Of a stretch of 64,000 nucleotides of DNA, positions 4,447 to 20,272 are shown piece by piece. The stretch covers positions 32,001 to 96,000 of the forward strand of contig RDOC01000002.1 of NCBI GenBank assembly GCA_011364985.1, read 5' to 3'. A program made the position numbers and the translations under genes. Within the stretch, counting starts at the first letter, position 1, and each line of letters opens with the position of its first letter. This stretch comes from Candidatus Thorarchaeota archaeon. Lineage in GTDB: Archaea; Asgardarchaeota; Thorarchaeia; Thorarchaeales; Thorarchaeaceae. Under the pieces are notes generated by a model, which did not search any database, was not told the origin of the DNA, and saw only the letters and a list, made by a program, of their open reading frames with translations.

Positions 4447-5352
4447 ATGGTTACCGCTCCTCATCCAGATTTTGTAGAAGCAGGTCGTATTGCGGCCAAA
4501 GTAATCGAGGAAGTAGCTAGAGAAGTTCGTCCGAGAGTCAAGGTTCTACGAATTTGTGCTCTTGCCGAAAGAAGGATACTGGAATATGTTGGGAAAAGAG
4601 GAGGAATTGCTTTTCCATGCAATGTTTCTATCAATGAAGAGGCCGCACATTATACAAGCCCTCGAGGAGATACGAAGATGTTTCCGGAACAGGGTCTTGT
4701 TAAAATCGATATTGGAGCACATGTAAATGGGCATATCTCTGATACAGCGGTGACAGTGGACCTTGATGGAACATTTGAAAAGTTCGTTGCCGCGGCCAAA
4801 TCATCTCTCGATGCAGCTATTGATGTTGTCCGTCCAGGAATACAGGTAGGTGAAGTGGGTGCAGAGATTGAGAAAACTATCAAGAGACACGGTCTCAAGC
4901 CAGTTCATCAGCTATCAGGACACCAGTTAAAACCATGGATATTGCATGCCGGAAAGAACGTTCCCAATGTGAGAATAAGGCGAAGTGCGGAAATGAAAGT
5001 CGGGGAAACTTACGCGATTGAACCTTTTGCGACCAATGGGAATGGTACGATAAGAAGTGGTGAGAATGCCTTCATATTTTCAAACAATATGTCAAACAAG
5101 AAGAAGCTTGATAGACTATCCGTTCAGATTCGAAATCAGACCAGACAACGGTTTGGCACATTGCCTTGGGCATCAAGATGGTTGAGAAGTCAGAAAGTTG
5201 ATACAAATACAATCATTGCGACCTTGGTTAAAGCTGGAGTAGTTAGGGAGTACCCAATTCTATACGAGGGCAGAAATGGCATGGTTTCGCAGTTTGAGCA
5301 TAGCATATTTGTTGGAGAAGATGGAGCCATTGTAACAACTCTTCGCAAGTAG
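4447..5352 (+). CDS. map: Type II methionine aminopeptidase (copy 1)
   Basis: AFPCNVSINEEAAHYT, KIDIGAHVNGHISDTA, LSGH..LHAG, YAIEPF, QFEHSI; all metal ligands present. Confidence 0.95.
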   Translation: MVTAPHPDFVEAGRIAAKVIEEVAREVRPRVKVLRICALAERRILEYVGKRGGIAFPCNVSINEEAAHYTSPRGDTKMFPEQGLVKIDIGAHVNGHISDTAVTVDLDGTFEKFVAAAKSSLDAAIDVVRPGIQVGEVGAEIEKTIKRHGLKPVHQLSGHQLKPWILHAGKNVPNVRIRRSAEMKVGETYAIEPFATNGNGTIRSGENAFIFSNNMSNKKKLDRLSVQIRNQTRQRFGTLPWASRWLRSQKVDTNTIIATLVKAGVVREYPILYEGRNGMVSQFEHSIFVGEDGAIVTTLRK

Positions 5353-5419: not shown

Positions 5420-6316
5420 TTGCTCAAACCACATCCAGACGCCGTCAAGGCTGGAGAAATTGCAGCACGCGTTCTCAAAGAAACAAGAAAAATGGTCGAG
5501 CCTAATACAAAGATTATCCGGCTGTGTGTCCATGCTGAGAAGAGAATCGTTGAATACGGGGGAAAACCAGCATTCCCATTTAATGTATGTATCAACAATA
5601 TTGCCGCGCATCGAACATCGCCAAGAAATGATTCCGAAATCATACCTGAGTTTGGTCTTGTCAAGCTTGATGTTGGAGTACATGTGAATGGCTATATTGC
5701 TGATACTGGACTAACGGTTGATATTGATGGTTCACTAGAGGGGTTTCCGGCAGCAACTGATGACGCTCTTCAAGAAGCGTTTGCCCTGTTCAAGCCTGGT
5801 ATGAGCCTAAGCAAAGTTGGGAAGCAAATTGAGAGGACCATTGGGGCATACGGTCTTAGACCTGTGAAAGACCTCAGTGGACATAGTATTGCAAGATTCA
5901 AGCTGCATGCCGGCAAGAAAGTACCAAACATAGGAATGCGAAACCTTCCAACAATCGAAGCAGGAGAATACTATGCAATTGAGCCCTATGCAACCAGTGG
6001 TTCAGGTAGAGTAGTTGAAACAGATCACATCTTCATCTTCGCAAATAGGGGTAAAGCAGAACCCCTCGAAGGTACAACAGAAAAGCTACGATTATACCTT
6101 AGAGAGAAATATGGATCACTACCTTTTGCCATACGGTGGGTCAAGTCATCAAGTGCAAAAGTGAACTTGGTTGACGAGTTCAGAGAACTCTTGAAAAACA
6201 GAGCAATCAGGCCAATCCCTATGTTGGTGGAAAAGAGTACCAGGCCCGTGAGTATGTCGGAGCATACTATCTTTGTCTCTAAAGACGGGCCTGTGATCTT
6301 GACCAAGGTGAGCTAG
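5420..6316 (+). CDS. map: Type II methionine aminopeptidase (copy 2)
   Basis: AFPFNVCINNIAAH, KLDVGVHVNGYIADTG, LSGH..LHAG, YAIEPY, SEHTI. Confidence 0.93.
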   Translation: MLKPHPDAVKAGEIAARVLKETRKMVEPNTKIIRLCVHAEKRIVEYGGKPAFPFNVCINNIAAHRTSPRNDSEIIPEFGLVKLDVGVHVNGYIADTGLTVDIDGSLEGFPAATDDALQEAFALFKPGMSLSKVGKQIERTIGAYGLRPVKDLSGHSIARFKLHAGKKVPNIGMRNLPTIEAGEYYAIEPYATSGSGRVVETDHIFIFANRGKAEPLEGTTEKLRLYLREKYGSLPFAIRWVKSSSAKVNLVDEFRELLKNRAIRPIPMLVEKSTRPVSMSEHTIFVSKDGPVILTKVS

Positions 6317-7805: not shown

Positions 7806-7893
7806 CTGTATCAGCTCGACAAATTCCGGTTATGCTTTAACCCTTGTCATTTAGACATTCGGTTGTAGGTATATGAAGCTGATATGGAGAAGT

Positions 7894-8044
7894 AGTGGCA
7901 GCTTGCAGACCTGTCACGCGCTCGCGCAGCGAACATCTTCTGCAACGATCCTAGCATACGTCAGCCCGTGGAATGACTCCAGCAGCTTTTAACTTCCGAG
8001 TTCGGAATGGGATCGGGTGTGCCCTAGGACCTATGGCCGCCATC
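7894..8044 (-). rRNA. rrf: 5S rRNA (stand-alone) with a 33-nt internal insertion
   Basis: Minus strand reads GATGGCGGCCATAGGTCCTAGGGCACACCCGATCCCATTCCGAACTCGGAAGTTAA...CTAGGATC...GCTGCGCGAGCGCG...GCTGCCACT. Helix I TGGCGGC/GCTGCCA, conserved loop C CCATTCCGAAC, TTTAAAAA box about 25 nt upstream. Confidence 0.92.
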
Positions 8045-8227
8045 GAAGTAGGAGAGACGCCGTGAGTTTTTAAAGATTACCTTAGGTTCATGAATCTTCT
8101 TTCCACCAATGATGGGAAGTTATGCCTTGATGGGAAAAGACGTTTGCAACCCTTTCGATATCCTCGGATATACTATTCAGTCAAAGCTTTACACGCTTGC
8201 GCTTAACCAAATCATTAGGAGAAGCAA

Positions 8228-9598: not shown

Positions 9599-10195
9599 AT
9601 GAGATCGGAAATAGAGGAAACTGTCGAATGGGCACGAAACGAAGCTAGATTGAACATTGAGCGGATCTTCCAAGGAACCGAGCTCTTGGAACCAGTACAA
9701 TCGATGTTCGACCGGATCAGATGGGACATCATTGGCGAGAAAATCGAGAATATTTTTCCCGGGAACTTCCCGGGATCCATGGAGGATTGGCAGCTCTGGG
9801 TTGCGAATACAATGGCCGCGGCACTTCCGGAGACACAATCAACACCACAGAGAATTGACCCTGTACACACGAGTCAACTTGGCAAGGACTTTCAGAAGAT
9901 GCTGGAGAATCTGAGAAAGGCTCGAAAGGACTTTCTGTTGCAAGAACAGGGGCATATGCGTAAGGGGCAGACTGGAAGTATGGAGCAGCTCGTAAAGCCG
10001 CTCGTGAATAGCTTTCAGCAACAATCATCAGGAGAGAAGCTCACTGGCGTAGCAGCAATTGTTACAACCGTGGGAGCTATGATTGCCGTAGGCGCCGCTA
10101 CTACCACTGCAGGCACAATAGCAGCAGGTGTTCTTGCAGTAGGTGGAGGACTTGCGTTGGCAGGATGGGCCCAAAAGCTGTTGCCAAAGAAATGA
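9599..10195 (+). CDS. Hypothetical helical protein with a C-terminal Ala/Gly-rich hydrophobic hairpin
   Basis: 198-aa ORF with GGAG RBS just upstream; C-terminus GVAAIVTTVGAMIAVGAATTTAGTIAAGVLAVGGGLALAGW. Confidence 0.6.
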   Translation: MRSEIEETVEWARNEARLNIERIFQGTELLEPVQSMFDRIRWDIIGEKIENIFPGNFPGSMEDWQLWVANTMAAALPETQSTPQRIDPVHTSQLGKDFQKMLENLRKARKDFLLQEQGHMRKGQTGSMEQLVKPLVNSFQQQSSGEKLTGVAAIVTTVGAMIAVGAATTTAGTIAAGVLAVGGGLALAGWAQKLLPKK

Positions 10196-11934: not shown

Positions 11935-12070
11935 GGGGCGGTGGCCTAGTCCGGCATGGCGACGGGCTCCAGATCGGGGTTCACTTCGAACCTGAATTGT
12001 GGGGTCAGAACTGGCCGTCGTCGTAGAAGACACTCGTCGATCGTGGGTTCAAATCCCACTCGCCCCACCA
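11935..12070 (+). tRNA. tRNA-Trp(CCA) with a 59-nt intron at 37/38 (11973-12031)
   Basis: Acceptor GGGGCGG/TCGCCCC plus ACCA; anticodon stem ACGGG/CTCGT with CT-CCA-G; T arm GTGGG-TTCAAAT-CCCAC. Confidence 0.92.
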
Positions 12071-12809: not shown

Positions 12810-13802
12810 CTAGTGGTCCGAACGTTCCTCTATTATCTTTCTGAGTTCCTGTGGTTTTTCAATCTCGTCCAGCTCTAGCTGTCGTATAACAGGAAGAGCT
12901 GCAATACTCTCGTCAGCACTCCCTTCTTCAACGATGATTACTGCATCTGATTCTGTGACCTTTGAAACACTGCGTAGAATCTCAACGCGTTTTAGGGAAA
13001 GGAAACGAACAGGATCCTTTTCAGTTTGTGGACCACGCAAGGAACCTACAGTTGAAATTAGAGGTGGCCCCTCTTCCTTTGCAGCTACATGGAATGGTGC
13101 TCTATCAGTCCATATGATTTTCATGCCGAGCTTCTCGAAAAATTCATTGACACGCGTTTCTAGACTAGGCAGTTCTGTTGGCGTCTTCTGCTGGAATGAT
13201 TCTCTCTGTGAAAATGCTCCACCAAGTATGTCAACTGGAATGATTAGATCGGTTTCAAGAACTTGTTCAAGCTTTTCCGCAACATTCGAACTGATATCCA
13301 TCTCATTTCTTTCATATGCTAGTATCGCTCTCGCCGAAACGTGAATACAGCCTGCAAGTTCTTCCTTGCTCATCTCCCGAGATAGACGGATTTTCTTCAT
13401 TTTGGCACCATTAATAGAAACAAAGCGGCCGCCGCGTTGAACAAACTCATGTGGCATATTATTCTTTACGACCAGAGACTCAAAACTTGGAGCAGTGATT
13501 GTGGATACACCATGACGAGCATAGATGACACCTTGTTCCAGTTGTCCTCTTCTCGTCTTGGAGCCAATGATGAGTGGTACTGCATTGAAAAAGTGTGCCA
13601 CGAGTTGGAGGGCAAGCGCGTCTTCCTTCTGAAAACTGTCAACATTTGATAAAGCCTTGATGAGAACAAGCTGATCACCTTTCCTTGCAGCTATGTCAAA
13701 ACAGCTCGGTTTCACATCACAGGGCGAAGAAACATCGAACCCAGCTTCTTCTAGGTGAAATGTAACCTCATCGATTATCTGGGTTCGTCCCTTTGTCATC
13801 AT
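12810..13802 (-). CDS. Archaeal HTH (cro/C1-type) regulator with an N-terminal nuclease-like domain (COG1395-like)
   Basis: CFDIAARK..LIKALSNVD, RGGRFVSING, central HTH (SKEELAGCIHVSARAILAYE), RAPFHVAAK. Confidence 0.8.
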   Translation of the reverse strand: MMTKGRTQIIDEVTFHLEEAGFDVSSPCDVKPSCFDIAARKGDQLVLIKALSNVDSFQKEDALALQLVAHFFNAVPLIIGSKTRRGQLEQGVIYARHGVSTITAPSFESLVVKNNMPHEFVQRGGRFVSINGAKMKKIRLSREMSKEELAGCIHVSARAILAYERNEMDISSNVAEKLEQVLETDLIIPVDILGGAFSQRESFQQKTPTELPSLETRVNEFFEKLGMKIIWTDRAPFHVAAKEEGPPLISTVGSLRGPQTEKDPVRFLSLKRVEILRSVSKVTESDAVIIVEEGSADESIAALPVIRQLELDEIEKPQELRKIIEERSDH

Positions 13803-20154: not shown

Positions 20155-20272
20155 TGGCGCCGAGGATGAGATTCGAACTCATGCGTGACAAAGCACACTG
20201 GTTGGCTTGGTTTGTTTCCGGAGAAACTGATTTTCAAGACCAGCGCCGTAATCCGGGCTTGGCTACCTCGGC
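20155..20272 (-). tRNA. tRNA-Ser(TGA) with an approximately 29-nt intron at 37/38
   Basis: Minus strand GCCGAGGTAGCCAAGCCCGG...CTGGT-CT-TGA-A[intron]A-ACCAG, long variable arm, ATGAG-TTCGAAT-CTCAT, CCTCGGC-GCCA. Confidence 0.9.

Follow-up and report, generated by a model that had tools for sequence, protein, structure and literature searches.

The 32-nt insert in the 5S rRNA gene of the Thorarchaeota genome under study (G000; 1.7 Mb, 74% complete) is, judged from its sequence and that of its relatives, very likely a BHB micro-intron that is spliced from the 5S RNA. A broader account of its place in the family has about an even chance of being correct: 5S rRNA would be a spliced RNA in some Thorarchaeia, carrying an EndA/RtcB micro-intron at one site in loop B in at least three genera, and the intron would spread with no homing endonuclease to carry it; at least once, an entire 5S gene would have been replaced laterally, at a locus doubling as an integration site.

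The gene occupies positions 7893-8044 on the minus strand of the window, which is the whole 64,000-nt stretch of DNA that was analysed, and it is recognised by Rfam RF00001 with 39.7 bits against a cut-off of 38. The sequence-only reading from which this work started had the gene right and put its span at about 151 nt; the Rfam match gives 152 nt. As that reading had also described, an extra hairpin sits between the GAAGUUAA motif and the helix II 3' strand, and the proposed alignment to RF00001 does match a 5S gene with an insert after model position 56, a site that we take to lie near position 58/59 of Escherichia coli 5S rRNA. The parts of the gene and of the predicted junction, with positions in the window, are listed below in the direction of transcription.

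8066..8075, minus strand: TATA-like box, some 25 nt ahead of the 5S gene and present at the corresponding place in front of the intronless 5S genes of relatives
7989..8044, minus strand: 5S exon 1, 56 nt, running from the 5' strand of helix I as far as the conserved GUUAA (helix III/loop B), placed by the Rfam alignment and intronless relatives
7991..7994, minus strand: AGUU, exon side of the central BHB helix, placed by the Rfam alignment and register scoring
7988..7990, minus strand: 5' bulge AAA, predicted to be cleaved 3' of its second A (7989/7988)
7957..7988, minus strand: insert, predicted BHB micro-intron, 32 nt, after Rfam model position 56
7984..7987, minus strand: 5' strand of intron helix h' (AGCU), from folding, pair probability 0.75-0.90
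7969..7981, minus strand: inner hairpin of the insert (UGGA/UCCA), from the minimum-energy fold
7963..7966, minus strand: 3' strand of intron helix h' (GGCU), from folding, pair probability 0.75-0.90
7959..7962, minus strand: intron strand of the central helix (GACG), giving three pairs and an outer A-G mismatch where G011 and G045 have A-U
7956..7958, minus strand: 3' bulge UAU, predicted to be cleaved 3' of its second base (7957/7956)
7893..7956, minus strand: 5S exon 2, 64 nt, from the helix II 3' strand to the helix I 3' strand, first base U

The size of the insert follows from comparison with intronless relatives. In the alignment, GUUAA is separated from the helix II strand by 34 bases in G000 and by exactly two in the intronless genes, so the insert is 32 nt long and its removal leaves 120 nt, the family norm; this 120-nt product aligns to the intronless relatives without extra gaps. 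An insert had thus been seen correctly beforehand, whereas its earlier size and position (33 nt at 7955-7987, leaving 118 nt) give way to 32 nt at 7957-7988 with the relatives' spacing, and the 33-nt/118-nt excision was rejected for its wrong length. The AGCU/GGCU and UGGA/UCCA stems of the hairpin, together with the GUU/GAC helix and its AAA bulge, are all present in the minimum-energy fold, in agreement with the structure first drawn. Folding also leaves helices I, II, IV and V intact and fully paired. The gene lies directly upstream of a DUF1512 gene, as it does in most relatives, and this DUF1512 gene is itself adjoined by two tandem M24 metallopeptidase genes (window positions 4447-5352 and 5420-6316, plus strand).

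One line of evidence for splicing is the anatomy of the junction. Archaeal splicing endonucleases cut a BHB after the second base of each of its 3-nt bulges. When 13 registers were scored in each of the four insert-bearing genes that were found (G000 and its relatives G011, G023 and G045) by a joint central-plus-intron-helix score, the register that restores a canonical gene had the best score in all four. The same geometry is shared by the four genes, in which exon AGUU pairs with intron GACN and is followed by an AAA bulge, the intron helix and a second 3-nt bulge whose last base is the first of exon 2. Both junctions of every one of these genes thus have a 3-nt bulge, the two lying on opposite strands and each 3' of the central helix. 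Excision after the second base of each bulge restores an uninterrupted 5S in all four genomes (119 nt in G045). The second bulge (UAU, 7956-7958) had gone unnoticed in the sequence-only reading, which described a relaxed BHB-like junction whose exact site was ambiguous by a few nucleotides; the relaxed junction is upheld, and the ambiguity is removed by this bulge, which fixes the site. Assigning the third A to the exon was rejected, since that register has only two of the four central pairs and no intron helix.

According to the motif definitions for archaeal splicing endonucleases (bioRxiv 10.64898/2026.10.13.758758; PMC5829648), G011 and G045 possess a canonical BHB, in which all four central pairs and the two outer helices are present. 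In G000 and G023 the three inner central pairs form next to an outer mismatch, and the intron helices have four and nine pairs respectively. More specifically, G000 forms three of the four pairs of the strict 4-bp central helix (the outer position is A-G), which places it in the relaxed class, a class that is very permissive on its own (bioRxiv 10.64898/2026.10.13.758758). It also lacks the exon outer helix. Dinucleotide shuffles reached the pattern at the fixed site in 0.6% of cases for G000 and in 0.16%, <0.005% and 0.19% for the other three genes; when a 3-nt shift was allowed, shuffles of the G000 insert reached it in 2% of cases. Among random genomic 32-mers the pattern arises in 0.1%. 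Across the four inserts 29 of 32 pair cells are formed (90.6%) versus 9-53% with slid partners. These genomes do not count as four independent samples, since one allele is shared by G000 and G011. The single two-sided change (C-G to U-A) is not above a within-column shuffle control (57/500). Folding gives the central helix a probability of 0.47 in G000, 0.27 in G011 and 0.08 in both G023 and G045, modest values which mean that thermodynamics alone is not decisive.

The middles of the inserts vary between genera, and the GAC that pairs with exon bases is invariant and faces the core GUU in each of the four genomes. Immediately past the predicted junction, 37 of 39 genes have a G; the two with a U are G000 and G016, its sister without an intron, and this shared U at the start of exon 2 provides independent support for the boundary. 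A covariance model built from 26 intronless genes recognised all four long genes and in glocal-free mode placed the gap in loop C; the boundaries given here were not taken from that model.

The distribution of the insert was examined in an order-level sample of 87 genomes, 81 of which gave a 5S match. Among the 79 full-length 5S genes of the family, 75 are 118-122 nt long and four are long (one further gene ends at a contig edge), so that the comparison of relatives suggested by the sequence-only reading yields 4 of 79 genes with an insert at the same site. G000 and G011 belong to the same genus and have inserts of 32 nt each, identical at 25 of 32 bases, and G023 and G045 represent two other genera with 30 nt each; across these three genera the inserts occupy one identical site, after Rfam model position 56. 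The long genes score 32-40 bits relative to the Rfam cut-off of 38, the insert being what brings such genes to or below it. No further clear long 5S emerged from a phylum-wide Rfam search, which misses most Lokiarchaeia-like 5S genes. A gapped pattern run against all genomes gave no same-site insert outside Thorarchaeia among the matches listed, which were ordinary Bathyarchaeia 5S genes, and a metagenome scan returned unrelated matches only. Another Asgard family is of separate interest, because its 5S match consists of two adjacent weak partial matches (G037 C1:227807-228034 and G026 C1:337637-337831; loci L026, L027 and L029), with similar pairs in G105, G115, G153 and G165; these are possibly split, permuted or interrupted 5S genes.

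The splicing machinery that such an intron would need is encoded in G000. Its EndA catalytic subunit has a crenarchaeal-type loop with the loop lysine and Tyr/His/Lys, with an Aeropyrum-type enzyme as best match (3p1z_B, E 1.6e-46), and the genome also encodes a second EndA subunit and an intact, full-length RtcB. The genes of the two EndA subunits are located on C11 (near 364.4-365.0 kb) and on C15 (near 155.9-156.5 kb); Sulfolobus acidocaldarius has an EndA of this type as well. The crenarchaeal-type loop confers cleavage of relaxed motifs (PMC5829648), and the host EndA is predicted from its sequence to be able to cut them, with RtcB available for ligation. Other RNA genes of the same genome contain comparable inserts: a 30-nt insert lies in a universal 16S motif near position 908 (C4:18949-18978, L238), and tRNA-Asp(GUC) and tRNA-Leu(CAG) have 30-nt inserts, cases from a tRNA intron census that is noisy for multi-intron genes and from which only those agreed by both methods were used. 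These 16S, tRNA-Asp and tRNA-Leu inserts exhibit the same relaxed junction as the 5S insert, with three inner central pairs and an outer mismatch, and the RNAs that hold them can hardly work unspliced. Elsewhere in the window, two tRNA genes with long insertions (11935-12067, plus strand, 133 nt by Rfam; 20158-20272, minus strand, 115 nt) are probably intron-bearing as well.

The course of events would then be as follows. The stand-alone 5S gene would be transcribed from its own TATA promoter, which is present in the sequence. In this precursor RNA the insert would pair through its 3' end with exon bases just upstream of the first junction and so form the central helix, the two 3-nt bulges and the intron helix, a pairing that folding shows to be possible and that is conserved in four genomes. 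By analogy with established archaeal splicing and from the enzymes encoded, a two-subunit EndA would cut after the second base of each bulge and RtcB would join the exons into a normal 120-nt 5S. At 32 nt the insert leaves no room for a LAGLIDADG endonuclease ORF and is not a homing-endonuclease intron; it has instead the features of the small hairpin rRNA introns, being shorter than 50 nt, without an ORF, and folded as a hairpin that keeps the BHB. It carries no mobility gene and may be a near-neutral passenger that has been repeatedly gained or lost at one splice-competent site; on the evidence of the trees, it seems to have moved at least once with a whole 5S allele.

The main alternative is that the hairpin remains in the mature RNA as an expansion segment, an arm projecting sideways from loop B, so that the 5S of the ribosome would be 152 nt long. 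The sequence-only reading named an expansion segment first and left the choice between it and a micro-intron open; the comparative evidence clearly favours the intron, and retention is unlikely. It is compatible with the self-contained folding of the insert and with a BHB that in G000 is of the relaxed class only. However, the published expansion segments are said to show no noticeable complementarity to the 5S core, and uL5 is reported to block position 57-58 (PMC7812874). The Thorarchaeia insert departs from the first of these properties, its GAC being complementary to the core GUU in four genomes. Moreover, the best-conserved segment of the insert is paired with core bases on which the mature fold depends (the G and U of AGUU at 7991..7994 are native helix III pairing bases of the mature RNA), as would fit a structure found only in a precursor. 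Retention also gives no reason for two exact 3-nt bulges, nor for a length of 30-32 nt that matches the tRNA and 16S inserts of the genome, and the distribution is patchy and not clade-wide. If the hairpin were nevertheless retained, archaeal 5S would gain a new expansion site, at a position believed to be blocked, and this too would be notable.

Alternatively EndA may cut out the insert without rejoining the ends, leaving a two-piece 5S held together by helices I and II in the manner of bacterial intervening sequences. Fragmented rRNAs do exist, and the junction would be an EndA-type substrate in either case. This possibility is nonetheless very improbable given that RtcB is encoded intact and that the cut sites restore the gene to the exact base, which suggests selection on a ligated product; archaeal BHB rRNA introns are, furthermore, ligated (PMC4496867). 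A still more remote explanation is that the locus is a pseudogene or an assembly artefact and that the working 5S is missing from the assembly. G000 is indeed incomplete, and broken 5S fragments do occur in relatives. Yet the gene is in its native position upstream of DUF1512, its TATA-like box is intact and its helices are fully paired. The sequence-only reading had named both an artefact and an expressed canonical copy elsewhere as outcomes that would overturn it, and the evidence speaks against both: the homologous insert at the same site in G011, an independent assembly, makes an artefact very unlikely, and no second 5S was found in the 74% complete G000 assembly by Rfam, a family-specific model or blastn. 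Against a missing copy, the three near-complete genomes with the insert (G011, G023 and G045, 92-95% complete) have no second full-length 5S either.

On a quick RpoB tree, in which row G060 is partly out of frame, the four insert genomes do not group together, the nearest relative of each is intronless, and the starred branches force four changes. A sister relationship of G000 and G011 is rejected on a DNA tree (AU p = 3.7e-9), whereas their 5S exons group together with 91% identity and support of 96/98. The 5S promoter of G011 is likewise of the G000/G016 type, in contrast to its DUF1512 protein, which is 94-95% identical to those of its true relatives G006 and G009 and 75% identical to that of G000. 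At the native position G011 has only a 3' remnant of a G009-type 5S, beside an IS110-like transposase, and its intron-bearing 5S is inverted and lies about 2 kb away (L031:3134-5410). The simplest reading of these sequences is that the whole 5S allele of G011 was acquired by lateral replacement. The inserts of G023 and G045 may have been gained separately or may be what is left of an ancient intron after many losses, and the trees do not tell these apart.

Partial 5S copies also occur in this group. G014 contains eight copies of the 3' half only (L109-L116), five of them on one contig (for example C20:3068-3135, 7908-8003, 9961-10036 and 13400-13520), and G011 has 3'-half copies at C2:32384-32460 (L118) and C2:27134-27287 (L119). 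These repeats, found in same-genus relatives, start some 5-15 nt downstream from where the intron lies and resemble stacked scars of integration events that target the 5S gene. A search for a donor of the insert in the 87 genomes, using a 23-nt pattern with up to three mismatches, found none: exact matches were confined to G000 and G011, and the 11 other matches compare with 10 control matches. In G000 itself a 16-nt exact match to the middle of the insert (C6:5317-5332) lies about 420 nt from a tRNA gene and in no identified RNA gene; 3% of random 32-mers have such a match, and it is probably due to chance.

Among the closest known systems are the short (<50 nt) hairpin BHB introns in 16S genes of Thermoproteales and Desulfurococcales (Jay and Inskeep 2015, PMC4496867). 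The 5S insert resembles these in being ORF-less and shorter than 50 nt, in folding as a hairpin with a BHB core within a conserved rRNA motif, in its patchy distribution and in the availability of EndA and RtcB. It differs in its host (5S in place of 16S/23S) and lineage (Thorarchaeia), and in that the 5S gene has no homing-endonuclease intron for co-conversion, the whole allele seeming to move. Non-canonical BHB introns are known from Asgard and crenarchaeal tRNA genes (PMC11291895; bioRxiv 10.64898/2026.10.13.758758, with the Marck and Grosjean classes as coded there). The 5S insert shares with these a length of about 30 nt, the junction geometry and repeated gains or losses on terminal branches, and with the tRNA-Asp insert of G000 the same relaxed junction, but it lies in an rRNA; the term 5S rRNA does not occur in either of these two reports. 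The expansion segments described in 5S rRNAs range from 13 to 109 nt, with 104.1-105 in Halobacteriales as the only archaeal site and the uL5 block at 57-58 reported for bacteria (Stepanov and Fox 2021, PMC7812874, which makes no mention of Thorarchaeota), and that of Halococcus has been seen by cryo-EM (PMC7530397). Like these, the Thorarchaeia insert is a structured insertion into the 5S core; its length is within 13-109 nt, and it adjoins the bacterial 57-58 site. Unlike them, it is complementary to the core and has BHB boundaries. 5S has further been described as the archaeal rRNA left out of the excision and circularisation route (PMC12918454). BHB splicing itself is well known; a literature search in which subscription papers were thinly covered found no description of an intron in any 5S rRNA.

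The 152-nt transcript would be an easy substrate for a first direct test of an Asgard EndA on a non-tRNA. If it is spliced, some oversized 5S genes would be introns and not expansion segments, a warning for the annotation of such genes, and the substrate range of EndA would come to include the one remaining rRNA, in archaea related to the ancestor of eukaryotes. 5S would then join the RNA classes that have introns, and its history in Thorarchaeia would offer a traceable route by which ORF-less archaeal introns may pass between lineages.
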